A stretch of 64,000 bases of DNA. It comes from a virus. Its lineage: Duplodnaviria; Caudoviricetes. The notes beneath the pieces are model-generated. The model was not told where the DNA came from. It saw nothing but the letters and a program-made list of their open reading frames with translations, and did no database searches. Where the stretch lies: positions 34,586 through 98,585 of the IMG/VR virus record IMGVR_UViG_3300014204_000137, one strand, 5' to 3'. The translations under genes were made by a program, and so were the position numbers. Below, in pieces: positions 851 through 51,350 of the stretch; within the stretch, counting starts at the first letter, position 1, and each line of letters opens with the position of its first letter.

Positions 851-1177
851 ATGGAATGTCCACGAAAAGATATGGAAAGCGATTATCCAGTAGAAAATTT
901 TAGCGAACACGGAAGTGAGTGTAAACGCTGTACTAGTTATAGAAATTGCTTATTCTATAGTCAAAAAGCAGAAGAGGAGAAAATCGTGGATTCTGAAAAG
1001 AGAATACCTATTTATAAAACTGCTGAGTATCAGGAAAGACAAACAACTTTCTTTAGAAGTCCCAAACTTACAGCAGATGACGTAGCTGATTTTAAGATCG
1101 ATTTAAACACCAAGAACATCATAAAGGAGTTAGAGAATGAAAATTCACACAGAAATAAAAATCGACGCAGCTCATAA
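851..1177 (+). CDS. Hypothetical Cys-containing protein
   Basis: AGGAGG RBS; C..C....C cluster. Confidence 0.65.
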   Translation: MECPRKDMESDYPVENFSEHGSECKRCTSYRNCLFYSQKAEEEKIVDSEKRIPIYKTAEYQERQTTFFRSPKLTADDVADFKIDLNTKNIIKELENENSHRNKNRRSS

Positions 1178-1508
1178 ACTTCCCAACTACGTAGGTAAGT
1201 GTCATAACCTACATGGACACACTTGGAAGATTGTAGTAGAAATCGATGCAGACGAGTTAGACAAAAACGAGTTTGTAGTAGACTTCACCAAAGTGAAAGA
1301 AGTCGTTAACCAACTCGACCACGCATACATAAATGACTTCGTGGAGAATCCTACTGCAGAAAATATTGCTGTTTACCTAGCTAATCAAATCAAAAAGTTA
1401 GGTGACGTCTGGGAAGAATCTACTCCAGATAAAATAGTGAATAGGTTTAATTCGGTCACTATTAAAGTTTACGAAGCAGCAGAAAGTTTCGCTGAAGTAA
1501 CTATTTGA
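1137..1508 (+). CDS. queD: 6-carboxy-5,6,7,8-tetrahydropterin synthase QueD
   Basis: DAAH.LP.Y.GKC..LHGHTW, VVDF..VK, LDH.Y.N, NPTAENIA, V.VYE. Confidence 0.95.
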   Translation: MKIHTEIKIDAAHKLPNYVGKCHNLHGHTWKIVVEIDADELDKNEFVVDFTKVKEVVNQLDHAYINDFVENPTAENIAVYLANQIKKLGDVWEESTPDKIVNRFNSVTIKVYEAAESFAEVTI

Positions 1509-1594
1509 CAGGAAAAACTCAGACCAGTTAGGTCACTCAAATAAACGTTCCTTCAGCTCAAAGGTTATTCAGCGAATATATTTAGGAGGGAATA

Positions 1595-2035
1595 GTGCGA
1601 GGTAGATATAGTTGGAGGCAGTTCGAAGAAGACTGCAAAGTACTTACAAAGAAGATCAAACGTAGTAAGTTTCAGCCAAAAACTATAGTTGCATTAGCTC
1701 GTGGTGGATTAACATTAGGAGTAAAACTTTCGCACAGTTTACATACTCCATTAATGATAGTCTCTGCAAAAACATATAATGGTGAAAAACAATCTTTAAA
1801 TACAGTACTTTTAAATTCAAGTTATACTGTACCTCTTCAATCTCCAATCCTTATTCTAGATGAAATAGCCGATAGTGGAAAAACTTTAGCTGTAGTAATG
1901 GACCATTTTAAGAGTTTGGGAGTAATAGTAAAAACAGCTACAATACTCTATAAGAAGCATTCAGTAACAAAGCCAGACTATTATATAAAGGAAGTAGAAA
2001 ACGAGAAGTGGATTGAGTTTCCCTGGGAGGCTTAA
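1595..2035 (+). CDS. Type I phosphoribosyltransferase (xanthine/guanine PRT-like)
   Basis: VALARGG, PRPP loop ILILDEIADSGKT, C-terminal WIEFPWE. Confidence 0.9.
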   Translation: MRGRYSWRQFEEDCKVLTKKIKRSKFQPKTIVALARGGLTLGVKLSHSLHTPLMIVSAKTYNGEKQSLNTVLLNSSYTVPLQSPILILDEIADSGKTLAVVMDHFKSLGVIVKTATILYKKHSVTKPDYYIKEVENEKWIEFPWEA

Positions 2036-2382
2036 TGAATAAAAATACCCTGGTAGAAGAATTTTTAAAGTTAGATGAAGAATTAGAAAAAGAATCTAAA
2101 GAAGATATCCAACATGATGACGTAAAACTTCATAGATTCTTTAATCTAATAGGTACTCCAGAAGTTCAAAATTATTTAGGAGATGAGTATCATAAAGATG
2201 GAGGACAATTTTATATAGGAGATAAAGTACGTTCCATTAAAATTCACCAAACAGGTTGGGAAGAAGCAATCGTAGTTAAATACTCCGGACGTCCTCTTAT
2301 TATTGTTAAACCATTTAATTATTTTACAGATCCAAACTCTACCTGTGTAGCAAATGAAGAAGAAATAGAAAGAGTAAAATGA
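2035..2382 (+). CDS. Hypothetical protein
   Basis: TAATG-coupled ORF. Confidence 0.65.
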   Translation: MNKNTLVEEFLKLDEELEKESKEDIQHDDVKLHRFFNLIGTPEVQNYLGDEYHKDGGQFYIGDKVRSIKIHQTGWEEAIVVKYSGRPLIIVKPFNYFTDPNSTCVANEEEIERVK

Positions 2383-2636
2383 AAAATTATCAAATAGTAA
2401 CTGATCCAATTCTTTTGAAGGGAAAATATTTTGAAATAATAGATGGAAAATTTTTCGATAGATGTGCTATGATTACGCATGCCTTTTTTGCATATTCCAA
2501 TCCTAAAATGCTAGTTATTAGGTGCTACCCAGATAGATTAATAATGGAGTATGATCTATTACCGAATGAAGAGGGAAAATATAACTTAGAGAGGGTACAT
2601 GAACATATCAGAGATTTTTGTAGCTCTTCAAGGTGA
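2379..2636 (+). CDS. Hypothetical protein
   Basis: ATGA-coupled ORF. Confidence 0.6.
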   Translation: MKNYQIVTDPILLKGKYFEIIDGKFFDRCAMITHAFFAYSNPKMLVIRCYPDRLIMEYDLLPNEEGKYNLERVHEHIRDFCSSSR

Positions 2637-3243
2637 GGGAAGATTTCAAGGAACTCCTGTACTTTTTATAAGAACGTCAGGATGTACAAGAGCTTGTTCG
2701 TGGTGTGATACAAAATATCATACGGAAGGAAAAGAGATTAGCATAGTAGAATTAAAAAGCACTATCAAGAGAATAGTCTGTACAGGAACTACTACAGTTG
2801 TATGGACAGGTGGTGAACCTCTAATGCAACTAAAAGAAATTTTAGAAGTTATGAAAAGACTTCCAACAGATATTAAATGGCATTTAGAAACGAATGGTGA
2901 TTTAATAACTGACGATCACGTTTACAGAACACTATCGAAACATTTTAATTATATTGCAATAAGTCCCAAATGTCTTAAAACTGGTTCAGCAGTTTATAAT
3001 CTTCGACAAAGGTACGTACCAAATAATGAAGATGCCCTAGTAGATATTAAAGTAGTGACTGATCTAGAAAAAATAAATACGGAGTTAGTATTTTTTGCTA
3101 CATCTCTAATGCCTTATACTACATATAATAGAGAAGTAGACGACGAAGTACGTAAGAAAGTTTGGATGTATTGTGTAGAACATAATCTACATTATAGTGC
3201 GCGTCTTCATACTCTTAATTTTGGTAACAAGAGAGGTGTATAA
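2599..3243 (+). CDS. queE: 7-carboxy-7-deazaguanine synthase QueE (radical SAM)
   Basis: EIF.ALQGEG..QGTP..FIRTSGCTRACSWCDT (CX3CX2C), TGGEP, LETNG, ISPK. Confidence 0.95.
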   Translation: MNISEIFVALQGEGRFQGTPVLFIRTSGCTRACSWCDTKYHTEGKEISIVELKSTIKRIVCTGTTTVVWTGGEPLMQLKEILEVMKRLPTDIKWHLETNGDLITDDHVYRTLSKHFNYIAISPKCLKTGSAVYNLRQRYVPNNEDALVDIKVVTDLEKINTELVFFATSLMPYTTYNREVDDEVRKKVWMYCVEHNLHYSARLHTLNFGNKRGV

Positions 3244-3557
3244 TGATATGTAGAGTGTGTGATCAAGAAATAACTGAGAACGGAACAAAAAAATTAAACA
3301 TAGACGTTCATGAAGGTTGCAAAGATTTTGTAGTTTATTATGAAAATAAATCTGATATGGATTACGTTCGATGTCACGGAAACGTAATTGATCTTGTTCC
3401 ATCATTTATTAATGGATGGCTAAAAGGAGTAGGAAAATGTCCTAAGTGTGGAAAATTATATGTAACTGATAGATTTCCAGATAACCCTAAACCACGTAAA
3501 CTTAAATTGCCAGATCCACCATCGGCAGAAAAGAGATCATCAAATGCAATACAATAA
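3243..3557 (+). CDS. Zn-finger hypothetical protein
   Basis: CRVC and CPKC pairs. Confidence 0.6.
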   Translation: MICRVCDQEITENGTKKLNIDVHEGCKDFVVYYENKSDMDYVRCHGNVIDLVPSFINGWLKGVGKCPKCGKLYVTDRFPDNPKPRKLKLPDPPSAEKRSSNAIQ

Positions 3558-4434
3558 AGGAAAATTACCAGACGTTCAAAAAACGAAAATCAAAGATACT
3601 GCTATCTCCAGCGTAGGAGAAGAGAATATTGATTTTCAATTTAAGGTGTATAGAAAAAATCGAAAAGATTTTGTAGCAACCGCAGCTAAAGTAGACGTGT
3701 ATCATTGGCTACAAGGAAATCGAAAAGGCACCAACATGTCTAGAATTATGGAAGTACTAATGGCTGGAAGAGAAAAGCCACTCGATAAGAAAAATTTAAA
3801 ATTACTATTAATGGACATGATTACTAGTTTAGAGAGAAAAGAACCAAAAGAGCCTAAAGTTCTAGTAAAGGACGTCTACATAGCTATTCGATTTACATAC
3901 TTTATGGAGAAGGAGGCACCATATTCAAAAAAGGTAGGATTATTGGGATATGATTGTGCATTTTATGGTAAGTTAATGCGTACTAATAGTCCAGATAAGT
4001 TTTTATTTACACATGCTATTGAAGTAAATGTTCCAGTAACTTCTCTGTGTCCATGCTCTAAAGAGATTTCAAAATATGGTGCTCATAACCAAAGGAGTAA
4101 AATATCTGTAACTGTACAACTTAAACCAGATCGTACTCTATGGCTAGAAGATCTGATACAGTTAATAGAAAAGCAAGGATCTTGCGAAATCTACTCTCTT
4201 CTGAAAAGGGACGATGAGAGAGTAGTTACTGAACGCGCATACGAAAATCCAAACTTCGTAGAAGATATGGTTAGAAAAGCTCGTAGAGCATGCGAAACTT
4301 TAAATGAAGTTAAAGCTTTTAAGGTAGGTGTAGTAAATTATGAGAGTATTCATACTCATAACGCTGTAGCACATATGAAACGAATAAGAAAAGGACGTAT
4401 ATGGATATCACCATACAAAAAGGATATACTCTAA
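3544..4434 (+). CDS. folE2: GTP cyclohydrolase type IB (FolE2)
   Basis: LPDVQ, GTNMSR, SLCPCSKEIS..GAHNQRS, LKR.DE..VTE.AYENP.FVED.VR, ESIH.HNA. Confidence 0.95.
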   Translation: MQYNKGKLPDVQKTKIKDTAISSVGEENIDFQFKVYRKNRKDFVATAAKVDVYHWLQGNRKGTNMSRIMEVLMAGREKPLDKKNLKLLLMDMITSLERKEPKEPKVLVKDVYIAIRFTYFMEKEAPYSKKVGLLGYDCAFYGKLMRTNSPDKFLFTHAIEVNVPVTSLCPCSKEISKYGAHNQRSKISVTVQLKPDRTLWLEDLIQLIEKQGSCEIYSLLKRDDERVVTERAYENPNFVEDMVRKARRACETLNEVKAFKVGVVNYESIHTHNAVAHMKRIRKGRIWISPYKKDIL

Positions 4435-4898
4435 TGCAGCCCAAACTCATCAATAAGATTTACTTAGCAGGACCTCTTGAAGGGAGAACTGCAAAAGAAA
4501 GATTTGCGTGGAGAGATTACGCAACAGATTACTTGAAGGATTATGGTATTGAAACATATATTCCTGGAGAAGATCTAACTCTAAATGACGCTCATTCAAT
4601 CACAATTTTAGACTATGCCATGATTGATAATTCAGAAGCGTTGTTAGTTAATTTAACTTGTCTTGGTGAGAATACTCCTACCAATACAGGTACACTTATT
4701 GAAATAGGTTATGCGAAGAAAGCAGGAAAACTCATTATTGCATACACCAATAGCGAGTGGCAGAGAGAGAACAGATTCTTAAAAGGAACTGTGGATATGA
4801 TTTTTAATAAATCATTCTTTAATGGAGATCCACTTCAATCTGCATTAGATTACATAGCAAGTTTTAACAAACGAAGGAGGAACGAAAGTGAAGTATAA
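4434..4898 (+). CDS. Nucleoside 2-deoxyribosyltransferase (NDT)-family protein
   Basis: IYLAGP, D..MI..S, GTLIEIGYA; start placed at TAATG overlap. Confidence 0.85.
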   Translation: MQPKLINKIYLAGPLEGRTAKERFAWRDYATDYLKDYGIETYIPGEDLTLNDAHSITILDYAMIDNSEALLVNLTCLGENTPTNTGTLIEIGYAKKAGKLIIAYTNSEWQRENRFLKGTVDMIFNKSFFNGDPLQSALDYIASFNKRRRNESEV

Positions 4899-5154
4899 AC
4901 ATCAGAAAGATTTCAAAAAGTTTATTGGAATGATGCAAACAGGATTAGAGCATGGACAAGAGAAATATGGTGATACTGGACTATTTGGTGACTCTCAACT
5001 AGAGATGATTGAAGAAGAATTGCGCGATGTAGCTTCATACGCATATTTACTTTTCTTGAAGATACAGATGCTAAAAAGACGTATGGTTAAGATAACTGAC
5101 CTAAAAGAGATAACAGGAAAGATCAGTAAAAACAAATTCAAAAAAGGAGTTTAG
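4888..5154 (+). CDS. All-alpha NTP pyrophosphatase (MazG-like / dNTP diphosphohydrolase-like)
   Basis: G.EKYG and EEELRD...Y (EExxD) motifs. Confidence 0.5.
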   Translation: MKYKHQKDFKKFIGMMQTGLEHGQEKYGDTGLFGDSQLEMIEEELRDVASYAYLLFLKIQMLKRRMVKITDLKEITGKISKNKFKKGV

Positions 5155-5155
5155 G

Positions 5156-5602
5156 ATGCGTATCCGAATGGTGTTTGGTGGAATTCTAAAGTTCAAAAAA
5201 TTAGTTAAGGAAGCAAAGATAACTTATCCAGTAATGCAAAGTGATGTTGGATATGACATGTGCTCAATAGAAGATAAAGTTATTAAACCAAGTACCAGTG
5301 AAATAGTTCATACAGGACTGGCTTTTGAGATTCCAGAAGATTATTATGCTCTTGTTAGAACACGTTCTGGATACGGAGTCAAAAACTCTCTTCAACTACA
5401 TCATGGACTAATTGATCCCGGGTACAGAAACGAAATTACTGTGTGCATTTATAATCATAGTGCGACTGAGTACAGAGTTTCTAAAGGAGATAAAGTTGCT
5501 CAACTAGTTATTCTACCACGTATAGTACTACCCCTAAAAGAAGTTTCAGAGTTACATCCTTCAGAACGAAATCTTAAAGGACTAGGATCTACAGGTAGGT
5601 AA
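5156..5602 (+). CDS. dut: Trimeric dUTPase
   Basis: GYD, RSG, GLIDPGYR.EI, GDKVAQLV, R..KGLGSTG. Confidence 0.93.
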   Translation: MRIRMVFGGILKFKKLVKEAKITYPVMQSDVGYDMCSIEDKVIKPSTSEIVHTGLAFEIPEDYYALVRTRSGYGVKNSLQLHHGLIDPGYRNEITVCIYNHSATEYRVSKGDKVAQLVILPRIVLPLKEVSELHPSERNLKGLGSTGR

Positions 5603-5603
5603 T

Positions 5604-6767
5604 ATGAAATCTAATAAGAAGCTATTTTGGATTTTTGCTTTATCTGCCTCCGTATATTTCACTCAGGGCATAGAGGGTCTCCCAGGACAAGCATTTTTCT
5701 ACTACCTTAAAGAAACTCTAAAATTTAGTCCATCCACAATCATGTATTTAGGTACCATAACTGGTATCGCTTGGTTGATAAAACCAATTTGGGGATATGT
5801 GATGGACGTCTTCAAACTTAAAAAACGTACCTGGATTTTACTAGCACTAGCACTAGACCTTATTATTGCCGCGTTTATAGGTTTATGGGCAATACCAGTA
5901 GCTATAATAATTGCATTGATGACTATAAAATCTACTAACGCAGCATTTAGGGATGTAGCCGTTGACGGTATAATGGTAGTAGAAGGACAGAAAAATAATT
6001 GCTGTGGACGCATCCAATCAATTCAATGGATGGCAATTTCAATAGCTAGCATTTTAACTGGTATTACAGGAGGATATATTGCTGAGAAGTTTAATTATCA
6101 GTTAGGATACCTTCTTCTTATACCCATATTTATTTTAGTCGCAATTCCAGCACTATTCTATAAAGAAAAACCCAAGACTAGAGAAAAATTTAAAGTTGAG
6201 AAGATCAAAAAGTTGTTTAAAGATAAGAGGTATTTAATAGGGGGTATATTATTTATGTTCTTTTACTGCTACAGTCCTAGTTTTGGAACACCTCTCCTAT
6301 TTATACAGAGGGATGAGTTTCATTGGTCTAAACTATTTATAGGAGTATTAGGCACAGTATTATCCGCGTTAGAAATTTTAGGTGCAATTGTTTACTATAA
6401 ATTTAGCAAGAAGTTGAATGTACGAAAGTGGTTATTGTTTTCAGTTTTTCTAGGAGCCTCTACTACAATGTGTTATCTTTACTACACACCATTCACTGCA
6501 ATCGTATACGCGGTAGTATTCTGCATAGTAGGTATGTTTATCCACCTCATTCTCTTAGATTATGTTGCTAGAATATGTCCTAAAGGATTAGAGACAACAG
6601 CATTCGCGTTGTTATGTAGCGTGATGAATATCGCAGGAACAGTCTCTAGCTTAACAGGAGCAGCTCTTCTTCCAATAGTAGGATTAAAGCCTCTTATAGT
6701 AATTTCAGCTCTTACGAGCTTTTTATGTTTGGCGTTCATTAAATACGTTAAGGTGGAGACTACATAA
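5604..6767 (+). CDS. MFS transporter, BT1 folate/biopterin-like
   Basis: About 12 TM helices; YFTQGI, AW.IKP.WG...D, DVAVDG.MV, CP.G.E.T.FALL.S. Confidence 0.85.
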   Translation: MKSNKKLFWIFALSASVYFTQGIEGLPGQAFFYYLKETLKFSPSTIMYLGTITGIAWLIKPIWGYVMDVFKLKKRTWILLALALDLIIAAFIGLWAIPVAIIIALMTIKSTNAAFRDVAVDGIMVVEGQKNNCCGRIQSIQWMAISIASILTGITGGYIAEKFNYQLGYLLLIPIFILVAIPALFYKEKPKTREKFKVEKIKKLFKDKRYLIGGILFMFFYCYSPSFGTPLLFIQRDEFHWSKLFIGVLGTVLSALEILGAIVYYKFSKKLNVRKWLLFSVFLGASTTMCYLYYTPFTAIVYAVVFCIVGMFIHLILLDYVARICPKGLETTAFALLCSVMNIAGTVSSLTGAALLPIVGLKPLIVISALTSFLCLAFIKYVKVETT

Positions 6768-7322
6768 ATGGGTCCCATAGAGCAAAAAGCCAGAGAGATT
6801 TTAAAAGATTTCGAAGATAAAATAGACCAACCTGCATCCTTATCTGGATTATACCATAAGGGAGAGTCTATGCGGGATCATCTAGAAATGACTACTAGTA
6901 TTATGAAGCACTTATGCGACGCTTATAACATTAAACCAGAAGAACGAGATATGTTAATAGCTTGTTGCCTTTTACATGACATAGGTAAATTTCCCATATC
7001 CAGAAAAGGATTTATTGAAGGACAAATAAAAGAAGGATGGCTGTATTATGAAGCAACAGGTTGGAGCAGAATAGAAAAACGTATGAAAGAGCATCCAACT
7101 CTTTCGGCAGAAATTATAGAGAAGTACGGCATACCTAGAAAAGAAGAGATCAAGAGAATCGTGAGTAGACATATGGCTCATTGGTATAAGAATTCTCCAC
7201 AACCAGAAATGATGTACGATTATATGCTGGTAACAGCTGATTATTTAAGTACTCGCCAAGAAGACCTCTATAAGTATGTAGAACGTACTAGCGAGTTTAT
7301 TAAGAAACCTTCTGAGGGATAA
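6768..7322 (+). CDS. HD-domain phosphohydrolase
   Basis: H..GE...DHL, LLHDIGK, EHP, RHM.HW, ADYL. Confidence 0.85.
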   Translation: MGPIEQKAREILKDFEDKIDQPASLSGLYHKGESMRDHLEMTTSIMKHLCDAYNIKPEERDMLIACCLLHDIGKFPISRKGFIEGQIKEGWLYYEATGWSRIEKRMKEHPTLSAEIIEKYGIPRKEEIKRIVSRHMAHWYKNSPQPEMMYDYMLVTADYLSTRQEDLYKYVERTSEFIKKPSEG

Positions 7323-7330
7323 TATAATTA

Positions 7331-9937
7331 ATGGAAACCACAAAACCTGAGAATTGTATAAAGTGTAAGTTGCATCTAACTAGTTGTGTAACGTCTAGTT
7401 TGAACGGACCTACTAGCGCATACAAGGTAATGGGTACTGGATCAACTACTGCAAAAATTATGTTGATAGGAGAAGCACTAGGTCAACAAGAAGCGTTAAC
7501 TGGAATACCTTTTACAGGATCTGCGGGAAAGCTTTTAAATGATGCATTAGAAAAAGCAGGTCTTACTAGAAACGAATGCTATTTAACAAATGTGATTAAA
7601 TGTCGCCCACCTGAGAATAGATCTCCATCAAAAGCAGAATGTAAATTATGCTTACCATTCCTTCTAGAAGAGATAAAAACAGTTAAACCAAAAGTAATAG
7701 GATTATTAGGTAGCACTTCCTTGGAGATAATTGCAAAACTAAAAGGAATATCTAGAATTCGTGGAAACGTATTTGATATAGATATAGAAGGAGTCATTTA
7801 TAAAATTATCCCTATTTGGCATCCAGCGTATGTTTTAAGATTTCCAGAATTGACAAATTTAAAAGACGAATTGGTGAAGGACTTAAAACTTGCAAAAGAG
7901 GTTAGCGAAAAAGAGAATTACGTAAAAACAAAAACACCAGTTAGATATGAATTAGTGGAAGATGAAAAAGACGTAGAGAAGGTATTTGCATATCTAGAAA
8001 AGATTAAACTTAAGAAAATTGTATCATACGATATCGAGACAACAGGTTTTAATTTTCTGAAAGATGAAATTCTTAGTATAGCGTTGAGTTGTGAGGAAAA
8101 CGAAGGAATATGCATGACTGGCAGTATTTATTATAATTTAGTTTTACCTAAATTAAAATCGATACTAGAATCTCCAGAGATACTAAAAATAGCGCACAAT
8201 TTAAAATTTGATAATAAATTTTTAAAGACTAGTGGAATAAACGTAAAACTGCCATTATCAGATACTATGTTGAGTCACTATTTATTGGATGAGAATAGTA
8301 CCCACGGACTAAAAGAACTCGCTTGGAAATATACAGATATGGGTGGATACGATGATGGAGTAGATTACAAAGAGTTTACCCACGAAAAGTTTTATAGTGA
8401 TGCTGAATTTAGAAAAAAGATTATGACTTATAACGTTAGCGATACTGATTGTACGTTACGACTATATTCAATATTTAAACCAGAACTTATAAAAGAAAAG
8501 TTGGATAAGGTTAACGAGTGTATTTTGATTCCACTCTCTCAAGTATTTTTAGAGACTGAGTATGATGGTGTACCATTAGATATTGAGTACATGGATAAAT
8601 TAGAAAAAGAAATTGACGCTAAAATTGCCGATATAGAATTTCGTATGCTAAATTCAATAGAGATTAAAACTTCTGAAAAACTTATTAATACTGTTGACAT
8701 CAAAGTAGATAATGTAGTAGTAGAACGTAAAATTATACCGCCCGAAGATAAAAAGTACAAAAAATTTAACTTAAAGTCTACTCACGATTTACAAGTATTA
8801 CTGTATAAGGTATTAAATTTGCACGCACTCAAACAAACAAAAACAGGATATTCTACTGATAAAGAATCTATGGATTACTTGCAGGGTAAACATCCTTTCG
8901 TAGATTTATTGTTACAGTATCGTGGAATTACACACGACAAGTCTGCGTACATAGTTCAGATGAGAAACAATTTGGATAGTAGGGGTAGAGTGCATACTGA
9001 TTATGGTTTACACAAAGCAGTTACGGGTAGACCTCAATCCGCTGAACCTAATCTTCAAAATATTCCGCGTACATCACATATCAAGAGACTTTTTATAGCT
9101 GAACCTGGATGCCTACTTTTATCTGCAGATTATAAACAGATCGAATATCGAGTATGGATAAATTTTGCAAATTCCAAAAAAGGGTTAGAAGATATAGCTA
9201 GAGGATTGGACATCCATTCAGAAGTATGTTGTATGGTCTGGCCACAGCTATATAAAAAGGTATCAGAAGGACAGTATCAAGTAGTAGCCACAGGAGACAT
9301 ACTTAAAAAGATCGATGGCAGAGATGATACTGCAATTCACGAACATCGTGTTAGTGCGAAGAACGTAGTGTTCGGAGTAATCTACGGAAGAGGAATTAAG
9401 AGTTTAATGGCTGAATACAAATTATCTGAAGCTGAATGCAATAAGATTTGGACAAATTTTTTCGCTATGTATCCAGAAGCAGAACAGTGGTTAGAAAATC
9501 AAAAGAAGTTTGTAAAAAAATATAAGTATGTCAAAAATATGTTTGGTAGGATACGGCGACTTCCTGAAATAGATAGTAATGAAGAGGAGTTTAGAGCAAC
9601 TGCTATTAGACAATCATGCAACACTCCTGTCCAATCTTCTGCTAGTGATATCCTATCTACTGGTACTATCAGAATATTTAATTTGATAAAAAATAATAAT
9701 ATGAAGTCAAAATTGTTCTTTTCAATTCACGACGCTTTAAAATATAACGTACCATTGAGTGAGTTAGATATGGCAATACAAGTTATAACAAAAGGGATGG
9801 GAGATCCAATTCCTGGAGTAAACTTTCCTCTAGAGGTAGAATTTGAAATAGGTCCTTCGTGGGGAGAGATGATTGGATTAGAGGAGTTCAACGAAGACAG
9901 AGAGAAATATTTAAAATTATGGAGGATATGCAAATGA
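7331..9937 (+). CDS. polA: Family A DNA polymerase with N-terminal family-4 uracil-DNA-glycosylase domain and 3'-5' exonuclease
   Basis: UDG4: C..C.L, IGEALG, PF.G.AG, TNVIKCRPP.NR.P, HPAY; Exo: DIETTG, AHNLKFD, YN..D; Pol: TGR..S.EPNLQNIP, ADYKQIEYR, R..AK...FG..YG, IHDA. Confidence 0.95.
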   Translation: METTKPENCIKCKLHLTSCVTSSLNGPTSAYKVMGTGSTTAKIMLIGEALGQQEALTGIPFTGSAGKLLNDALEKAGLTRNECYLTNVIKCRPPENRSPSKAECKLCLPFLLEEIKTVKPKVIGLLGSTSLEIIAKLKGISRIRGNVFDIDIEGVIYKIIPIWHPAYVLRFPELTNLKDELVKDLKLAKEVSEKENYVKTKTPVRYELVEDEKDVEKVFAYLEKIKLKKIVSYDIETTGFNFLKDEILSIALSCEENEGICMTGSIYYNLVLPKLKSILESPEILKIAHNLKFDNKFLKTSGINVKLPLSDTMLSHYLLDENSTHGLKELAWKYTDMGGYDDGVDYKEFTHEKFYSDAEFRKKIMTYNVSDTDCTLRLYSIFKPELIKEKLDKVNECILIPLSQVFLETEYDGVPLDIEYMDKLEKEIDAKIADIEFRMLNSIEIKTSEKLINTVDIKVDNVVVERKIIPPEDKKYKKFNLKSTHDLQVLLYKVLNLHALKQTKTGYSTDKESMDYLQGKHPFVDLLLQYRGITHDKSAYIVQMRNNLDSRGRVHTDYGLHKAVTGRPQSAEPNLQNIPRTSHIKRLFIAEPGCLLLSADYKQIEYRVWINFANSKKGLEDIARGLDIHSEVCCMVWPQLYKKVSEGQYQVVATGDILKKIDGRDDTAIHEHRVSAKNVVFGVIYGRGIKSLMAEYKLSEAECNKIWTNFFAMYPEAEQWLENQKKFVKKYKYVKNMFGRIRRLPEIDSNEEEFRATAIRQSCNTPVQSSASDILSTGTIRIFNLIKNNNMKSKLFFSIHDALKYNVPLSELDMAIQVITKGMGDPIPGVNFPLEVEFEIGPSWGEMIGLEEFNEDREKYLKLWRICK

Positions 9938-10611
9938 AAAAAATAGTTGGAATAGTGAGTGGTGGTTTAGACAGCGTAGCTTTTGCAGCATCTAGAGTAC
10001 AGCCAGGAGATGAACTTTACGTACTAACTTTTAATTACGGTCAAAAAGCTAGCGCAGAAATTTTAGCAGCTCAAGAAGCATTAAAAGGAGTAGCTAAAGA
10101 ATTTAAAGTACTAGATATAACTTTCATGAAAAAGTTGTGGCCTAGAACACAATTAACTGATGACACAGTTAAAGTAGAAGATGGATACACCTCATCAGTA
10201 GTAGTCCCTATTAGGAATGCTGTATTTATTACAATTGGTACTGCATTTGGATATTCTATTGACGCAGACGAAGTTGTAACTGGTTCTCACTTAAGTGATT
10301 GTACGATAGATAATGGAGAACCTATGTATCCAGATTGTAGTCCAGAATTTACGGAAGCTATTCAAACAGCATTGCATTTAGGACACTTTAGAAAACATAG
10401 AAAAATTAAAATCCTTAATCCTGCTGTTTTAGGAATGTCAAAGGCAGATATAGTTAGAGCAGGGTATCCTGTATTAGGCGATAGTATATTCAAAACTTGG
10501 AGTTGTTACTCCACTGGAGAAAAACAATGCGGTCATTGCGAAAGCTGTAATAATAGAAAAACAGCTTTTAGATTAGCGCAAGTAGTAGATAAGACTCATT
10601 ATCAGAGTTGA
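9934..10611 (+). CDS. queC: 7-cyano-7-deazaguanine synthase QueC
   Basis: SGGLDS, F.YGQK, VP.RNAVF, YPDC, TWSCY..GEKQCG.CESC..R; GGAGG RBS 8 nt before ATG 9934. Confidence 0.95.
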   Translation: MKKIVGIVSGGLDSVAFAASRVQPGDELYVLTFNYGQKASAEILAAQEALKGVAKEFKVLDITFMKKLWPRTQLTDDTVKVEDGYTSSVVVPIRNAVFITIGTAFGYSIDADEVVTGSHLSDCTIDNGEPMYPDCSPEFTEAIQTALHLGHFRKHRKIKILNPAVLGMSKADIVRAGYPVLGDSIFKTWSCYSTGEKQCGHCESCNNRKTAFRLAQVVDKTHYQS

Positions 10612-11864: not shown

Positions 11865-12479
11865 GTGAAAATGGACCACAGTTGGAAAGATAGTAGTAAT
11901 GAGAAAGAAATTTTTAGCAAGGAAGGCTATTCGGAAATAAAACGCCTTGCTATGAAAGAAGGAGAATACACTATTCGTATTCTGGTGGCACCTAAGTTGT
12001 TTAGGTTTCACTGGATTGATGAAGTCAATCGATCAATCAATTGCGGACCCGATTGCGAACTTTGCGCTTCTGGAGAACGTGGTCAACTAAGGTACGCTGT
12101 CACCATTATTGATCGGGCTGATGGAGCAATTAAGATTTGGGAGTTTGGTCGCAGAGTAAAAACTTCCATTGCTAATATTGCTGACAAGTACGGAGATCCT
12201 ACGAATTATGACCTAACGATTATTCGTAAGGGTATGAAGGCAGAAGATACAGTGTACACAGTAATTCCAGCACGCGAAGAAAAAGCTTTAACGGACGCAG
12301 AGAAAAAGCTTCCTTTGTACGATCTGGAAAAATTGTACGCAGTAACTCCTAAAGAAGTAGTTGCATCATACCTTAAAGGAATCGTTCCTGAAAGGTCAAA
12401 AGAGAAGGCAGAAGCGAAGGATCGTGGTGGAGATAAGATTGTCGAGAAGGGCACCGACGATTTACCTACGCTTTCGTAA
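11865..12479 (+). CDS. Single-stranded DNA-binding protein (gp32-like)
   Basis: IRIL, HW...C..DC.LC Zn site, IIDR.DG..KIWEFG, YGDP..YDL.I.R.G...T.Y.V.P, charged tail. Confidence 0.75.
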   Translation: MKMDHSWKDSSNEKEIFSKEGYSEIKRLAMKEGEYTIRILVAPKLFRFHWIDEVNRSINCGPDCELCASGERGQLRYAVTIIDRADGAIKIWEFGRRVKTSIANIADKYGDPTNYDLTIIRKGMKAEDTVYTVIPAREEKALTDAEKKLPLYDLEKLYAVTPKEVVASYLKGIVPERSKEKAEAKDRGGDKIVEKGTDDLPTLS

Positions 12480-18788: not shown

Positions 18789-18940
18789 AAAAGACTACTG
18801 TTGGGACCGTACCGGAACAGAAATGCGCGCATAAAATCCAAACGGTGACAGCTAGGAGAGACTGCACAATATCAGAAGCAGAGTTAGATAGAGAATTTTC
18901 AAGAGGTTTACCAGGAATGAGGGAGAGTGATTATGATTAA
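18785..18940 (+). CDS. Small hypothetical protein (51 aa, MKKTTVGTVPEQKCAH...)
   Basis: ATGA-coupled open frame filling the gap; below ORF-track cutoff. Confidence 0.45.
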   Translation: MKKTTVGTVPEQKCAHKIQTVTARRDCTISEAELDREFSRGLPGMRESDYD

Positions 18941-19583
18941 TTCGTACTTAGATTACACTGATCTTAATCTAGCGAAGCCATCTAAAGAAGTAATGGAATC
19001 AGTTAAGGATGCCATCTTCTTGAACTGTTATGGCTTTTGTACATATATTAGCAACCACTTCTTAGTAGATAAGGTAGTAACTAGAGCGAATAGTCAGATC
19101 AAAAAGATTTATGTGGTGGGATTTCCGCAGGGAACCATGCGAGAGTATAGACGAGATCTCTCTCATATTGAATATTGTAACGCAGATGAGATTGATGTCG
19201 TATTACCAGCATACTTTCATTTTGACAAACTTATTAGAGCATCAAAGATGTTAAGTGCAGTACGAAAGTTAACTAAAGGAAAGGTTTTGAAAGTAATTAT
19301 CGAGACCACTCTTTTAGACGAGAAGGGTATTTTTTCAGCAGTACGTTTAGTAGAAGATGTTGGAGGAGATTATATCAAAACCAATACGGGATTCATCCAC
19401 ACTAGAAGAACTCGTACATTAGTGGAGGATGTTAAATTAATCAAGGAGTATACCAAACTACCTATTAAAGCGTCAGGGGGTATCCGCGATTATTCTCTAG
19501 CTAAAGAATTAGTAGACGCAGGAGTTTCTAGAATAGGTACATCCTCAGCAAGACAAATCATTGATGGGGAGAAAGCGAGTTAA
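18933..19583 (+). CDS. deoC: Deoxyribose-phosphate aldolase
   Basis: D.T.L, VGFPQG, ADEIDVV, LKVIIET, IKTNTGF (Schiff-base Lys), IKASGGIR, RIGTSS. Confidence 0.92.
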   Translation: MINSYLDYTDLNLAKPSKEVMESVKDAIFLNCYGFCTYISNHFLVDKVVTRANSQIKKIYVVGFPQGTMREYRRDLSHIEYCNADEIDVVLPAYFHFDKLIRASKMLSAVRKLTKGKVLKVIIETTLLDEKGIFSAVRLVEDVGGDYIKTNTGFIHTRRTRTLVEDVKLIKEYTKLPIKASGGIRDYSLAKELVDAGVSRIGTSSARQIIDGEKAS

Positions 19584-19585
19584 CA

Positions 19586-20128
19586 ATGTTGGAGAAGATG
19601 GCTGTAAGAGATAAAGTTGTGACGTATCTCGCCGGACCCATGGAAGGTGTTACAGCAGATAACGCAGTTGAGTGGAGAGATAGAATTACCCCAAAACTAA
19701 AAGAGTTTTTTGGCGACAACATTATAACTGTAGATCCATGCAAGACAGAATCTGCTAAGTTAGAAGGACTAGTAGAAGAAGGGATGGACTTAAAGGATTC
19801 AAAAAAGATCATGAAGGGATGGAAAGATACTGGTAAGTGGCGTCAGTTTGATACTGCTATGAAACGAATTAGAGAAGCAGATTTAAAAGCAGTTAGAGAT
19901 TCCGACTTCATCATAGTCTACTTAGATTTCAAAATCATTATGGGTGGAACTATTTCTGAAGTAGAACACGCATACGATTGGGGAATTCCAATCTACGCAG
20001 TCATCAAAGAACCCTCTGCTGCTAATAGTTGGGTGCTAGGTACAGTTCGACAAGGTGGAAGATATTTTCCAAACTTCACTCAATTACTAGAAGCGGTAAC
20101 GAAAGATTATGTGAGGTTCAAAAAATGA
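19586..20128 (+). CDS. Second NDT-family protein
   Basis: YLAGPM, WR, DL.AV..SD.IIV, GT..E...A. Confidence 0.85.
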   Translation: MLEKMAVRDKVVTYLAGPMEGVTADNAVEWRDRITPKLKEFFGDNIITVDPCKTESAKLEGLVEEGMDLKDSKKIMKGWKDTGKWRQFDTAMKRIREADLKAVRDSDFIIVYLDFKIIMGGTISEVEHAYDWGIPIYAVIKEPSAANSWVLGTVRQGGRYFPNFTQLLEAVTKDYVRFKK

Positions 20129-23148: not shown

Positions 23149-23727
23149 ATGAGTGATTTACGAGATTTAAAAGCGATCGAAAGAAGAAAACAAGTCCGAA
23201 AATATATACGTCAAAGATTGACGCAAGTCGAGATGGCTGAGAAACTTCAAGTAGATGTTACTACTATCTCAGATGATGTAGCAGTTATTCGTAGAGAAAA
23301 TATTTATAACATACTATCTAATAAAGAATTAATAGAAAAAGACACCAAGAGTATCCTAGAGTCTATCAACCAATTAAATGAAATAGACGCAGAATGCTGG
23401 AAAATTTACTATGGCGGTTTTATTATAAAAAAGAAAGATGAAAAAGGTAACCCTATAGACGTAGAAATTCCGCTAGATCCAAAAACAAAATTAGACGCAT
23501 TATCTCACATAGAGGCTAATTTAAAACGACGTTGCGAACTCTTGAAATTAATAAGTCCTCAACAGATTACTATAGAGAAGATGGTATACGTAGAAAAAAT
23601 GATTCCTATTGTAATGCAAAAGTATACAGAAATAGTTTTAGAATACGTACCTAAAGAGAAGCAAGTAGAACTTTTAGACAAGTTAATGACAATTGATATT
23701 GAAGGAATGACCCTCGATGGAAAATAA
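23149..23727 (+). CDS. Putative terminase small subunit (N-terminal HTH)
   Basis: ERR..V.......TQ.EMA.KL.V...TIS.D HTH, then helical body; upstream of TerL. Confidence 0.65.
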   Translation: MSDLRDLKAIERRKQVRKYIRQRLTQVEMAEKLQVDVTTISDDVAVIRRENIYNILSNKELIEKDTKSILESINQLNEIDAECWKIYYGGFIIKKKDEKGNPIDVEIPLDPKTKLDALSHIEANLKRRCELLKLISPQQITIEKMVYVEKMIPIVMQKYTEIVLEYVPKEKQVELLDKLMTIDIEGMTLDGK

Positions 23728-24391
23728 AGAATTAAGTGATGTACAAGATCAAATAGTTGAACTCAAAAAGAAAGAAGCAGAATTGCTTAAGACTACTAAG
23801 GAAAAGTTTTCTGTAAAAAAGGCTTTAAGTTCTTTTAACATCTTAGATCCAATTGCTTGGATGAAATGGTTTTCGGGAGCATTTAGAACAGTAATAGTTT
23901 TAGCTTTAGTAGTAGCTTTAATATTCAGTGCAGGATACTTTAAGGGAGTAGGAGATAAACCAATTAATGTAGGATATAAAGATTTTACTGCTCAAGTAAA
24001 AGCAAAGGATGGTACTGTTCATACTGTTTCAGTTAAAGGAGGAATACTTTACTTTGATAAGCAAGTTGTGCATGGACATGATGTTAAAGAGTTGGAACAG
24101 TTTGGAATTAAAATACGTCCCAAAGTATTTTTTGGAATGGGTACTGCTTTAGAACCAGAAATAGGGGCGGGATTTCAATTACTCAAGTATCAGAAATTTA
24201 ATTTAGATCTCTTTGGAACTCAAAAGGCTTTATATGTAGGAGTTTCTTACGACTTAGATTTTAGTGGTACTGCAGGTACGCTTATTCAAAATTCTAGTGT
24301 AGGTATTGCTGTAGGAAAGTCTTGGAACAGCATGTTCGGAGATGACACCAACGACAACAGAGTTTTATTGTATTGGTCAGTAAAGTTTTAG
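23717..24391 (+). CDS. Membrane protein: TM helix plus C-terminal beta-rich domain ending in Phe
   Basis: TM VIVLALVVALIFSAGYF; alternating beta strands; ends LLYWSVKF. Confidence 0.6.
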   Translation: MENKELSDVQDQIVELKKKEAELLKTTKEKFSVKKALSSFNILDPIAWMKWFSGAFRTVIVLALVVALIFSAGYFKGVGDKPINVGYKDFTAQVKAKDGTVHTVSVKGGILYFDKQVVHGHDVKELEQFGIKIRPKVFFGMGTALEPEIGAGFQLLKYQKFNLDLFGTQKALYVGVSYDLDFSGTAGTLIQNSSVGIAVGKSWNSMFGDDTNDNRVLLYWSVKF

Positions 24392-34343: not shown

Positions 34344-34883
34344 ATGAAATCGTGGACAGAGTTCTATCAGAAGAGAGTAAGAAATAAAGCATACGAACAG
34401 TACGTATCAAATAGATACCAACCCTTCCTTAACTTACTGAAGCAAGAAAAAGGAACGATAGTAGAAGCAGGATGTGGAACAGGAATCATTACCAAGTTAA
34501 TATTTAGCCAAGAGAACTTACATGAGATGTACGATCAGAGTATAGGAATGCTCAAGATCAGTAAGGAAATGCTTCCACAAGTGAAACAGCAAAAGTTTGA
34601 TATTCGAAATGGTTACAATAAGTTAGTTGATTGCATATTCAGTCATGGTGTACTGGAACACTTTAATCCAGAAGAGATAAAGAAGATAGTTCACAACCAA
34701 CTCAAAGTAGCAAAGAAAGTATTTCATTACGTACCTACATCTAAGTACAACTATAAGAGCTTCGGTGACGAACTACTTATGTCAACAAAGGAATGGAAAG
34801 AGTTAGTCAAACCCACAAGAACGCTAGAGTTTAATAACGGATATGATTTAGTTATGGAATGGAGTCAAAATGGAACAACATGA
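34344..34883 (+). CDS. Class I SAM-dependent methyltransferase
   Basis: VEAGCGTG, SHGVLEHF. Confidence 0.85.
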   Translation: MKSWTEFYQKRVRNKAYEQYVSNRYQPFLNLLKQEKGTIVEAGCGTGIITKLIFSQENLHEMYDQSIGMLKISKEMLPQVKQQKFDIRNGYNKLVDCIFSHGVLEHFNPEEIKKIVHNQLKVAKKVFHYVPTSKYNYKSFGDELLMSTKEWKELVKPTRTLEFNNGYDLVMEWSQNGTT

Positions 34884-36207: not shown

Positions 36208-36921
36208 ATGCAATTCAAAAACCTAGAACATAATCCAATCTTAGTAGTCAGAACAGAATCACACTGCCATGGTACATCATTACCAACCTCTGACATAGAT
36301 ACTAGAGGAGTAGCAATTCCCACACAAGATTACTTCTACGGACTAAAGAACTTTGAGCAGTATGAGGATAAAGAGAACGACGTAGTAATATATGGATTCA
36401 AAAAGTTCATATCACTAGCAGCAAAAGGAAATCTTTCCGCACTCAACTTTCTGTTTACACATAAACGAGATGTACTGTATACAGACTACTGGGGAGACAA
36501 GTTACTAGGGTTCAAAGAAAACTTCCTAAGCATGCAGATCCTTAATTGCATATTCGGATACATCAAATCACAGATACATAGGATGGATAGAGGATCAGGA
36601 AGATGTGGAAACCGTCAAGACCTAGTAGATAAACACGGATACGATACCAAGTTTGCATATCATGCAGTCATGCTAGGGTTCATTGGTATAGAGTTGGTAA
36701 AGACGGGGACTTACCATGCTTTAAGACCAGATGGAGAACAAAAACTGATAAAAGCAATCAGATTAGGTCAAACACCTTATGAAGAAGCAATGAGGATGAT
36801 ACAGGAAAGTCTAACTGTAATCAAAACACTAGAACCAATCGCACCTCTACCAAAGCATGTAGATGGAAACAAGATATCTGAATGGTGCGTGGAGTTCTTA
36901 AAGGAGTATTTTAATCAATGA
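36208..36921 (+). CDS. Pol-beta-superfamily nucleotidyltransferase (YcgL/RlaP-like)
   Basis: S..HG...PTSDIDTRGV, KF..LA.KGN, GYDTK.AYH. Confidence 0.85.
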   Translation: MQFKNLEHNPILVVRTESHCHGTSLPTSDIDTRGVAIPTQDYFYGLKNFEQYEDKENDVVIYGFKKFISLAAKGNLSALNFLFTHKRDVLYTDYWGDKLLGFKENFLSMQILNCIFGYIKSQIHRMDRGSGRCGNRQDLVDKHGYDTKFAYHAVMLGFIGIELVKTGTYHALRPDGEQKLIKAIRLGQTPYEEAMRMIQESLTVIKTLEPIAPLPKHVDGNKISEWCVEFLKEYFNQ

Positions 36922-37268: not shown

Positions 37269-37590
37269 ATGAGAATTTCAATTAAATCAAAACCAAATAG
37301 TATTGAGTGGGATATTAAAGTAAGTTTGTACGCTAACATAGTAACAGTAATTGTACGTTTCGATAATGGATCTAAGATAGAGAAAGTTTTTTACAATCAG
37401 AACAAACAAGCTAAAAGATTTATAGATCGAGTTAAGAGAGAAGCAAAATGAAGAAGAAAAGAATCAGCCTAGATGAGTACAGTAAGTTAATGGATAGTAT
37501 TATAGCAGAGAAACTATCTGTACCAGATACCTTAATTAAAATGCTTGAAGTAGCATCTCGTTGCGAGATAATAGGAATGAAGGAAGTAAA

Positions 37591-38712
37591 ATGAAAAGAT
37601 TCATATTCCACGTACTAGGACTATCTCACGCACAAACAAAGCGAGAGTATAGTTGTGATGCATTTACTCAGAAGGTTAGACTGATCTGCAAGATGTTAAC
37701 CGAAAGGGGACATCACGTTATTCATTACGGAACAGAAGGTTCAGATCCAATCTGTTCAGAGAATGTAGATGTATTGAGTTTCGACACGTTTGCAAAAGTA
37801 CATAGAGCATACGATTGGAAGAAGGATGGATTCCTTATAAGTAACGAAAACGCCGCAACAGTAGAGTTTAACAAGAATGCAATTTTGAGAATCAATGAAA
37901 GAAAAGGACCTACAGATTTCTTACTATGTAGTTTTGGAGTACAACATGAACCAGTAGCAAATGCAGTTAAGCCAATCATCGTAACAGAGTTAGGAATAGG
38001 ATACGAATTATCATTCGCCCCCCATCGCATCTTCGAGAGTTACAACTACATGCACTACATATATGGGAAGGAAGGAAAGAAGTTGTGTCCTCACTTCTAT
38101 GATGCAGTAATACCAAACTACTACGATTTGAATGACTACATCTACTCAGAAGAGAAAGATGATTACTTCTTCTTTATAGCAAGAGACACTCCTCTCAAAG
38201 GATTAGAGATTGCAATCAAGGCAACAGAAGCAGTAGGTGGTAAACTAATTGTAGCTGGTCAAGGAACGCCCCCGTTCACTAGTCCATGTATGGAGTTCGT
38301 AGGAGTAGTAAGTATTGAGGAAAGAGCAAAGTGGATGAGTAAAGCAAAAGCAACATTCGTTCCTTCATATTATATTGAACCATTTGGTGGAACAGTAATT
38401 GAATCATTGCTTGCGGGTACACCAGTCATCTCTACAGACTTTGGAGCGTTTCCAGAAACAGTCATTCATGGGAAGACTGGATACAGATGTAGATCTCTAG
38501 AACAATTTATTTGGGCTGCAAAGAATATAGGAAACATCAAACCAATTGATTGTAGGAATTGGTCAGTAAATAATTATTCATTAGAACGAGTAGCAAAGAT
38601 GTATGAAGAGTACTTTGACATGGTGCAAAGAATTTATGTTAATAAGCAAGAAGGTTGGTATCAGCATAATGATGAAAGAACTGAACTGGACTGGCTCAAA
38701 AAATATTTTTAA
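37591..38712 (+). CDS. GT4-family glycosyltransferase
   Basis: VIPN, R...KG...A, EPFG....E....GTPVISTD.GAF.E. Confidence 0.9.
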   Translation: MKRFIFHVLGLSHAQTKREYSCDAFTQKVRLICKMLTERGHHVIHYGTEGSDPICSENVDVLSFDTFAKVHRAYDWKKDGFLISNENAATVEFNKNAILRINERKGPTDFLLCSFGVQHEPVANAVKPIIVTELGIGYELSFAPHRIFESYNYMHYIYGKEGKKLCPHFYDAVIPNYYDLNDYIYSEEKDDYFFFIARDTPLKGLEIAIKATEAVGGKLIVAGQGTPPFTSPCMEFVGVVSIEERAKWMSKAKATFVPSYYIEPFGGTVIESLLAGTPVISTDFGAFPETVIHGKTGYRCRSLEQFIWAAKNIGNIKPIDCRNWSVNNYSLERVAKMYEEYFDMVQRIYVNKQEGWYQHNDERTELDWLKKYF

Positions 38713-50437: not shown

Positions 50438-50438
50438 A

Positions 50439-51053: not shown

Positions 51054-51054
51054 G

Positions 51055-51345: not shown

Positions 51346-51350
51346 AAGAT

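Follow-up and report, generated by a model that had tools for sequence, protein, structure and literature searches.

A phage preQ0 gene cluster coupled to an NDT-superfamily gene in a genome without a recognisable DpdA: a candidate nucleotide-pool route to 7-deazaguanine DNA

Introduction

Every experimentally studied system that places 7-deazaguanine bases in DNA has a gene of the DpdA family, and Cui et al. (2023; PMC10516641), who recognized the DpdA3 subfamily in phages once thought to lack DpdA (phiST, CP220 and immuto), took the view that every 7-deazaguanine virus has DpdA and that insertion of the base is therefore always post-replicative. Hutinet et al. (2019) only speculated on modified dGTP or on undetected deoxyribosyltransferases, and in the literature searched we found no paper that links a phosphoribosyltransferase (PRTase) or a nucleoside 2'-deoxyribosyltransferase (NDT) enzyme to 7-deazaguanine DNA. 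Here we describe a Caudoviricetes phage from a landfill metagenome, represented by the 98,585-bp IMG/VR viral contig IMGVR_UViG_3300014204_000137, in which a complete set of genes for the free base preQ0 (7-cyano-7-deazaguanine) is interleaved with genes for both kinds of enzyme and in which no DpdA is recognisable. The stretch initially analysed, referred to here as the window, comprises 64,000 nucleotides (bases 34586-98585 of the contig; GC content ~35%); coordinates are those of the window unless another contig is named, and all called genes of the contig lie on the + strand. Of the sequencing runs listed, one DNA run, a landfill metagenome that is probably the source sample, contains the phage, and no RNA run does.

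Routes to an altered genome that act on the nucleotide pool are known for adenine analogues. The PurZ0 Z-genome phages (Gordonia phage Ghobes, Arthrobacter phage Wayne; NAR 2026) reach dZMP by a DmtZ/DutZ route, in which the Dut-like DutZ hydrolyses dATP and dGTP to monophosphates and dmtZ is adjacent to or fused with dutZ; the report gives no specificity-determining DutZ residues to compare (PMC12884076). For guanine, complete replacement (100% dADG) in the Campylobacter phage CP220 group was once proposed to pass through a modified dGTP, and a DpdA3 was found later (PMC6884629, PMC10516641); the genome described here has none. Our reading of this genome, which we hold tentatively and with somewhat less than even confidence, is that it encodes a preQ0 DNA-modification module that would work without a DpdA transglycosylase, the base being attached in the nucleotide pool.

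Results and Discussion

A complete preQ0 pathway is embedded in the replication module

All four preQ0 genes are present and interleaved with other genes; the cluster is embedded between a primase-helicase gene and the gene for a family A DNA polymerase, and every open reading frame (ORF) of the cluster is intact and tightly coupled to its neighbours. Genes were called from Pfam and NCBIfam matches together with catalytic motifs, with PHROGs and PDB also searched for selected proteins. QueD (6-carboxy-tetrahydropterin synthase; 1137..1508) matches PF01242 (E=2e-25) and has the motif CHNLHGH (CxxxHGH), which marks it as QueD and not as a DpdL variant; QueE (7-carboxy-7-deazaguanine synthase; 2599..3243), a radical S-adenosylmethionine (SAM) protein, matches PF04055 (E=4e-14) and has the motif CTRACSWC (CxxxCxxC); and FolE2 (GTP cyclohydrolase IB; 3544..4434) matches PF02649 (E=3e-73) and scores above the cut-off of the NCBIfam FolE2 equivalog. 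QueC (7-cyano-7-deazaguanine synthase; 9934..10611) matches PF06508 (E=4e-46) and reaches 139 bits against a cut-off of 150 for TIGR00364; it has the SGGLDS P-loop and a C-x7-C-x2-C-x2-C cluster, the published motif being C-x8-C-x2-C-x2-C (PMC13329287), and its closest homologs (73-81% identical) adjoin NDT genes in other lineages.

Between queD and queE lies a gene for a small type I PRTase of 6-oxopurine type (1595..2035; PF00156, E=4e-21; phrog_8995). The gene for an NDT-superfamily enzyme, here termed NDT1 (4434..4898; PF05014, E=1e-11), is coupled to folE2, the stop codon of the latter and the start codon of the former sharing TAATG at 4432-4436, and is followed by the gene for a trimeric dUTPase-family enzyme (Dut; 5156..5602; PF00692, E=1e-24). 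An HD/HDIG phosphohydrolase of unassigned specificity (6768..7322; PF01966, E=2.5e-13; TIGR00277) is encoded just before PolA (7331..9937), a fusion of uracil-DNA glycosylase (UDG), 3'-5' exonuclease and family A DNA polymerase (PF03167, PF01612 and PF00476) that is ~32% identical to SPO1-like Bacillus phage polymerases, and the polA stop overlaps the queC start as ATGA (9934-9937). These families and couplings had been proposed in a first-pass annotation made from the sequence without database searches, and each of them was borne out. That annotation missed a folate/biopterin-type (BT1) major facilitator superfamily (MFS) transporter encoded between dut and the HD gene (5604..6767; PF03092, E=7e-30; TIGR00788, E=1.5e-24, below cut-off). 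A megablast search of the cluster against isolate phages gave no match.

No DpdA is detectable in an essentially complete genome

The first-pass annotation had also remarked that no DpdA was in view in the window, and had proposed a search of the full genome for variants of DpdA and of the tRNA-guanine transglycosylase (TGT) with hidden Markov models (HMMs). This search, extended to the whole 98,585-bp contig, found none: there was no match at E<=10 to PF01702, PF20314, phrog_20335 or phrog_19058. As DpdA3 was visible only by HHpred in earlier work, custom DpdA3 HMMs were used, with phiST, Chryseobacterium phage MA9V-3 and immuto_2-6A as references. A six-sequence HMM that included close relatives found no match in six-frame translations of the contig, tblastn detected no remnants, and with a deep HMM, for which 120 of the 750 DpdA3 family members found in metagenomes were aligned, the best score of the contig's own sequences was E=0.78, against 1e-44 to 1e-82 for all six controls. 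None of the 750 family members, all matches in a large protein database, has a Pfam assignment.

None of the contig's own ORFs without a family match is a plausible hidden TIM barrel. Of those with at least 200 aa, all but one, which belongs to the tail module, are shared with DpdA3-bearing relatives as orthologs; because these orthologs coexist with DpdA3, no such ORF is likely to be a DpdA replacement. Four candidates for a cryptic DpdA (L004:6460-7221 and L004:12102-12845; 23717-24391 and 11865-12479 of the window) were rejected, as they show no DpdA3 motifs or HMM matches and all but one of them have orthologs in DpdA3-bearing relatives.

CheckV estimates the contig to be 72% complete. On the right, the contig breaks within a gene that begins at 63549, inside its G-X-Y repeats (63549-64000); at its left end it opens in frame and on the same strand in G-X-Y repeats, which are closed by a globular C-terminal domain at genome base 1069 (L003:2-1069). 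This phage was also assembled independently in ENA (98,406 bp), and that contig likewise ends within this repeat. The two ends thus read as halves of one collagen-like fibre gene and the contig as essentially complete, so that the CheckV estimate was set aside and the negative result for DpdA covers essentially the entire genome. Judged from these ends, the only missing sequence should be repeat inside that one fibre gene, and we take the genome to be circular or permuted.

Closest relatives carry DpdA3 together with the same NDT and PRTase genes

Syntenic phage contigs were reached through homologs of NDT1 (62-71% identical), namely an 85 kb NCBI contig from a metagenome-assembled genome (L008/L015) and an 82 kb Logan contig (L010). 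In these relatives the order is primase-helicase, QueD, PRTase, QueE, FolE2, NDT, Dut and UDG-PolA, then RuvC, HD, RecA, DeoC and NDT2, a second NDT-family gene; NDT and Dut abut directly, the FolE2-NDT-Dut-PolA synteny is conserved, and no QueC is present at the position after PolA. QueD is 65-68% and QueE 50% identical to the copies in the relatives. A DpdA3 gene lies ~3 kb upstream of the primase gene (L010:1112-1891, L008:429-1205; E ~1e-32 against the phiST/MA9V-3/immuto HMM), with another dUTPase/DCD-like gene, the second in these contigs, after it (NCBIfam PRK02253, 117 bits); a third relative with DpdA3, P0147, is represented by a 30 kb contig. In the genome studied here the flanking sigma factor, loader and primase are kept at 48-57% identity, and DpdA3 and its Dut-like neighbour are gone. 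As its closest syntenic relatives carry DpdA3, the lineage belongs to the DpdA3 class of 'complete replacement' phages, and gene content indicates that this genome is a DpdA3-lost variant that has gained QueC and the MFS transporter.

Two other diverged lineages (L020/L021 and L024-26) likewise encode the PRTase, FolE2 and NDT alongside QueC. The L020/L021 contigs are short, and their QueC is 74% identical to that of the genome studied here; in L024-26, a phage contig of GC 27%, no DpdA3 was found in the 33 of 44 kb covered, which include the replication module from ligase to UDG-PolA. DpdA3 was thus not seen alongside QueC in this genome, in the 33 kb of L024-26 or in the short L020/L021 contigs, while the three QueC-less relatives all have DpdA3. 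The first-pass annotation had suggested looking for co-occurrence of PRTase, HD and NDT genes with que genes in DpdA-less phages; for PRTase and NDT this was seen in L020/L021 and L024-26 within the stretches available, and the closest relatives combine these genes with DpdA3. For a further QueC-bearing contig, P0027, the negative is limited to the absence of a TGT Pfam match. Directly after QueC, both P0027 and L020 (L020:4241-5284) encode a flavoprotein-like oxidoreductase with a GAGPA motif and a weak Pyr_redox_3 match, which may further modify preQ0.

Loss of DpdA3 raises the question of whether DNA is modified at all. The preQ0 made could serve the queuosine tRNA of the host or a small-molecule product, or be exported or imported by way of the MFS transporter; alternatively, the genome could be a recently crippled DpdA3-loss variant. 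Such an explanation would fit with the absence of DpdA, described as a signature of DNA modification (PMC10516641), with the unusual folate/biopterin-type transporter inside the cluster, and with the recovery of a single genome of this exact make-up. A tblastn search of 50,697 isolate phage records found no match to the transporter, which may carry a pterin or a 7-deazapurine and is not found in the syntenic relatives. A defective or unrelated pathway is nonetheless hard to reconcile with intact, tightly coupled ORFs placed between primase-helicase and PolA, with the same make-up in an independent lineage, and with a phage that was assembled twice and was abundant enough to yield 98 kb contigs; a purpose in tRNA queuosine is further opposed by the lack, in this genome, of GUN-anticodon tRNAs and of TGT, QueF, QueA or QueG genes. 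We consider explanations of this kind improbable.

NDT1 belongs to a rare and conserved NDT subfamily

In profile alignment, the NDT1 family matches purine 2'-deoxyribosyltransferases from Trypanosoma and Leishmania (2a0k/6qai), the nucleophile Glu included. Invariant residues include Y21, D71/D76 and E101, which fits the Tyr/Asp(Asn)/Glu triad, as well as several Arg and Lys. What we take to be the position of the Asp that binds the 5'-OH of the sugar in classical NDTs is an invariant Asn in the NDT1 family, and this Asn, together with the invariant Arg and Lys, is compatible with a phosphorylated substrate, though no proof of one. The subfamily is strongly conserved but rare (22 cluster representatives at E<=1e-10 among 1.84 billion); scans of IMG/VR with the NDT1 protein and with the family alignment found no relatives, and no NDT gene is present in the five PRTase-bearing isolate phages that were searched whole (phiST, immuto_2-6A, MaInes, BUCT-ZZ01 and MT835497).

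In its surroundings NDT1 resembles DmtZ. In both cases, an NDT-superfamily enzyme and a trimeric Dut-family gene lie near base-synthesis genes and a phage polymerase, and the Ghobes order of DmtZ, a 61-aa ORF and DutZ is paralleled here by NDT1, an 88-aa ORF (u4) and Dut. Exchange of a canonical purine for an analogue on a dNMP, as in the DmtZ/DutZ route, would carry over directly. The two systems differ in that the analogue there comes from PurZ whereas here it would be a guanine surrogate from the Que pathway. Dut is 33% identical to Ghobes DutZ, an identity that is uninformative.

The second NDT-family paralog, NDT2 (19586..20128; PF05014, E=2e-5, below cut-off), shares with NDT1 the motif YLAGP.EG..WRD and the nucleophile Glu, and is a candidate dNMP N-hydrolase. 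Its gene directly follows that for a deoxyribose-phosphate aldolase (DeoC/DERA; 18927..19583), which matches TIGR00126 (E=3e-32; 112 bits against a cut-off of 117) and has the Schiff-base motif IKTNTGF. DeoC is conserved in the relative L015, where it is followed at the syntenic position by a 180-aa gene of the same size as NDT2. This pairing, kept in the family, fits a dNMP N-hydrolase that feeds DeoC.

The PRTase is a near-specific companion of 7-deazaguanine clusters

Homologs of the small PRTase occur in only 13 of the 50,697 isolate phage records, namely in the phiST group, the immuto group, Brevundimonas phages MaInes and StAshley, Synechococcus phage BUCT-ZZ01 and one faecal contig. The DNA of the phiST group contains 100% dDG and that of the immuto group 100% fdPreQ1, in both cases a complete replacement by a 7-deazaguanine. 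In three of the records, immuto, MaInes and BUCT-ZZ01, the PRTase gene lies inside the folE/queD/queE cluster, and phages of the phiST group account for most of the others; DpdA3 is present in phiST, immuto and MaInes; the best match, in the faecal phage MT835497, is in a high-GC, unannotated record and is uninformative. By this distribution, the PRTase is a near-specific marker of 7-deazaguanine clusters.

The resemblance to phiST-type DpdA3 phages (PMC10516641) goes beyond the PRTase, which in phiST belongs to the same small family and is 31% identical (CGPG_00045), as these phages likewise have a FolE/QueD/QueE(/QueC) pathway beside a family A polymerase. The genome described here differs from them in that it has no DpdA3, has FolE2 in place of FolE, and adds two NDT-family genes, DeoC and the MFS transporter. 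In several DpdA3 phages a P-loop gene that resembles nucleoside or nucleotide kinases adjoins DpdA3 or the PRTase (phiST, L001:46381-46860; MA9V-3, L002:11528-11998; immuto, L005:15606-16130; MaInes, L006:8617-9282). Such kinases flank DpdA3 in phiST, MA9V-3 and immuto and are lacking here; their presence hints at nucleotide-level chemistry even in DpdA3 phages.

Two records with this PRTase are of interest in their own right. BUCT-ZZ01 (L007, ON615601.1), a cultured T4-like cyanophage with a complete 156 kb genome, has the order QueE, PRTase, an intervening gene, QueD and FolE; no DpdA of any class is detectable anywhere in its record, and it is thus a second, culturable candidate for a DpdA-less system. 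A 33.5 kb Logan contig from SRR23086394 (P0028) encodes QueD, QueE, a PRTase-FolE fusion (303 aa), QueC, a 308-aa ORF that matches no family, and UDG-PolA. Through this fusion, the PRTase is linked to the pathway.

As to what the PRTase does, its best PDB match is a Pyrococcus purine phosphoribosyltransferase (1vdm, E=1e-19), followed by Sulfolobus GpT-1/2 and E. coli XGPRT, and the nearest NCBIfam model is that of xanthine phosphoribosyltransferase, below cut-off. The plain reading of these matches is a guanine/xanthine-type salvage enzyme that would convert guanine to GMP and hence to GTP, the substrate of FolE2. ToyH, the PRTase of toyocamycin and sangivamycin biosynthesis, offers another model. 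The likeness consists of a type I PRTase beside preQ0 genes, whereas the nearest characterised relatives of the enzyme studied here are archaeal and bacterial 6-oxopurine salvage PRTases; salvage is also the simpler role. ToyH-like activation of preQ0, although possible, would leave the NDT enzyme unexplained and would need a ribonucleotide reductase (RNR) step.

The first-pass annotation had built on the ToyH model. In that version, the PRTase makes the preQ0 ribonucleotide, host kinases and RNR act next, the HD protein and a MazG-like protein deplete dGTP as DatZ and MazZ do in Z-genome phages, and PolA incorporates the analogue. The placement of the PRTase inside the cluster across many lineages, the compatibility of the type I PRTase fold with purine analogues and the conservation of the HD protein and Dut in the family all accord with it. 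A ribonucleotide route would, by contrast, load the analogue into the RNA pool too, no RNR or kinase is encoded, the conserved NDT enzyme coupled to folE2 would have no role, and neither of the two proteins cast as dGTP-depleting enzymes could be confirmed as such.

The gene that had been called MazG-like encodes u4 (4888..5154), a helical protein of 88 aa that has no match in Pfam (E<=10), PHROGs, NCBIfam or PDB. Its relatives are hypothetical proteins found only in viruses (ESM Atlas). The protein is predicted by AlphaFold to form a two-helix hairpin (predicted local distance difference test [pLDDT] 71), and has an acidic EExxE stretch that is not kept in homologs, in which only ELRDVA.YA is kept; an assignment to the MazG/MazZ-type all-alpha NTP pyrophosphohydrolases was therefore rejected. 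In the relatives, the gene that immediately precedes and overlaps DpdA3 encodes a u4 homolog. The HD protein, taken for DatZ-like in the first-pass annotation, has a generic HDIG domain, no sequence relative in the PDB beyond chance matches, and generic HD and YhaM-type proteins as its structural neighbours. Its gene is intact here and in L008 but is split into ORFs of 105 aa and 72 aa in L010:16021-16501 and L011:6992-7472, two assemblies of one relative, which argues against an essential DatZ-like role; on this evidence the HD protein is probably dispensable. The cluster is thus similar to the PurZ/DatZ/MazZ/DpoZ Z-genome in concept, with dedicated base synthesis, pool editing and a phage PolA, whereas no DatZ-like or MazZ-like protein is substantiated and PolA is an SPO1-like, UDG-fused enzyme. 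We regard the version based on ToyH-like activation as having little chance of being right.

A tentative model for base exchange in the nucleotide pool

We propose instead that the base is exchanged by NDT1, and the catalytic specificities in the scheme that follows, as well as modification of the phage DNA itself, are predictions. FolE2, QueD, QueE and QueC, the genes and motifs of which are in place and the chemistry of which is established for these families, would convert GTP to free preQ0. Dut or host enzymes would supply dGMP or deoxyguanosine, on the deoxyribose or deoxyribose-5-phosphate of which NDT1, by analogy with DmtZ/DutZ, would swap guanine for preQ0. The PRTase would return the released guanine through GMP to GTP and FolE2, so that the dG pool would be progressively turned into the analogue; host kinases would make the triphosphate, and the adjacent phage PolA would incorporate it. 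NDT2 and DeoC may dispose of or harvest surplus dNMP.

Several lines of evidence favour attachment in the pool. All four preQ0 genes are intact with their catalytic motifs and an essentially complete contig has none of DpdA1-4; NDT1 is a genuine member of the NDT superfamily, is coupled to folE2 and keeps its synteny, and the PRTase-FolE2-NDT trio recurs with QueC; and the PRTase is nearly confined to 7-deazaguanine clusters, contexts with QueC are seen without DpdA3, and no sign points to tRNA queuosine. The proposal of pool-level preQ0 incorporation made in the first-pass annotation accordingly remains viable, given the absence of DpdA and the DmtZ/DutZ precedent, but its assignments of a ToyH-like PRTase and of the MazG-like and HD proteins are unsupported.

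A stronger form of the model is that guanine replacement is complete, pre-replicative and free of any transglycosylase: Dut would take dGTP to dGMP, NDT1 would make the swap, the PRTase would recycle guanine until the whole dG pool consists of dPreQ0 nucleotides, and PolA would incorporate these, as a guanine-side counterpart of DmtZ/DutZ. We consider this form doubtful, albeit possible.

A number of observations weigh against attachment in the pool, in addition to the generalisations cited at the outset, by which all 7-deazaguanine systems have DpdA and act after replication. NDT1 has no detectable sequence relationship to DmtZ (hhalign probability 2%, family profile against Ghobes DmtZ); without a sequence ortholog, the parallel is one of architecture and superfamily rather than clade, and a shared function would be convergent. 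The fold, moreover, would not tell nucleoside from nucleotide substrates, as the AlphaFold model of NDT1 (pLDDT 79) matches nucleoside transferases (NDTs) and the nucleotide N-glycosidases MilB and DNPH1 about equally well in Foldseek. The relatives combine the same NDT and PRTase with DpdA3, so that these enzymes are not simply DpdA substitutes and may only supply precursors. The mutual exclusion of QueC and DpdA3 is drawn from a handful of contigs, and the 308-aa ORF before PolA in the SRR23086394 contig might be a DpdA. The genome has no RNR, no kinase for deoxynucleosides or dNMPs and no recognisable dGTPase, its sole P-loop kinase being part of an RNA-repair cassette, and several steps are thus left to the host. 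Finally, the UDG-fused, SPO1-like class of PolA is otherwise tied to T-modified genomes (PMC13697223), so that PolA is not specific evidence for replacement of G.

In the main rival explanation, preQ0 would be inserted into DNA after replication, by a DpdA/TGT-type enzyme of the host or an unrecognised phage transglycosylase, with the NDTs, DeoC and the PRTase forming only a guanine-harvesting arm (dGMP to guanine, GMP and GTP, and hence to FolE2) that supplies precursor for heavy modification. A supply role fits the co-occurrence of these genes with DpdA3 in the relatives, the position of the PRTase nearest guanine/xanthine PRTases and its fusion to FolE in one lineage, the pairing of NDT2 with DeoC, which would consume the sugar product of a dNMP N-hydrolase, and the lack of encoded kinases; use of a host DpdA has been proposed for HVTV-1 (PMC6884629), and all such modifications have been argued to be post-replicative (PMC10516641). 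However, no candidate phage transglycosylase is left in the essentially complete genome, and bacterial DpdA inserts its base at <0.1% of G (PMC10516641), a level at which a dedicated full pathway would protect little. A second lineage with a DpdA3-less, QueC-plus make-up also argues against accidental loss. We therefore judge post-replicative insertion to be unlikely here, if well short of negligible, and retain exchange of the base in the nucleotide pool as our working model.

Other genes of the cluster and the window

The remaining ORFs of the cluster are small. The two between the PRTase and QueE (2035..2636; u1, 2035-2382, and u2, 2379-2636) match no family and are not kept in the relatives, and the Cys-rich u3 (3243..3557), which has weak zinc-ribbon matches only, is 52% identical to L008:8826-9119. 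An RNA-repair-like cassette at 49127-51572 includes a metallophosphoesterase (49127-49663), a P-loop kinase (49961-50437) and an RNA ligase (50439-51053), after which three tRNA genes (Met-CAT, Ala-TGC and Ile-TAT) are found at 51351-51572. Further possible modification enzymes, according to precomputed Pfam matches, are two SAM methyltransferases, an RlaP-type nucleotidyltransferase, a group-1 glycosyltransferase and an Amidoligase_2 protein (34344-34883, 36208-36921, 37561-38712, 41232-41738 and 55248-55910), with a peptide deformylase and a C39 peptidase encoded near them.

Conclusions

No activity has ever been demonstrated for DpdA3, the subfamily tied to 100% replacement. An essentially complete DpdA-less genome with a full base pathway and NDT, Dut and PRTase genes, together with a second lineage of like make-up, provides a concrete, cloneable test case for a nucleotide-pool route and turns the question of whether complete replacement of G is pre- or post-replicative into one of simple enzyme assays. 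Whatever the mechanism, the PRTase is useful as a marker of 7-deazaguanine clusters, and recognition of DpdA3 as a large family without a Pfam model matters for annotation. If the pool route is correct, the NDT-family base-swap chemistry seen with DmtZ would extend from adenine to guanine analogues, and the enzymes could be used for making 7-deaza-dG nucleotides. It would also explain how replacement becomes complete; in DpdA3 phages that share the PRTase, such as phiST and immuto, complete replacement may likewise need pool-level chemistry and not DpdA3 alone.

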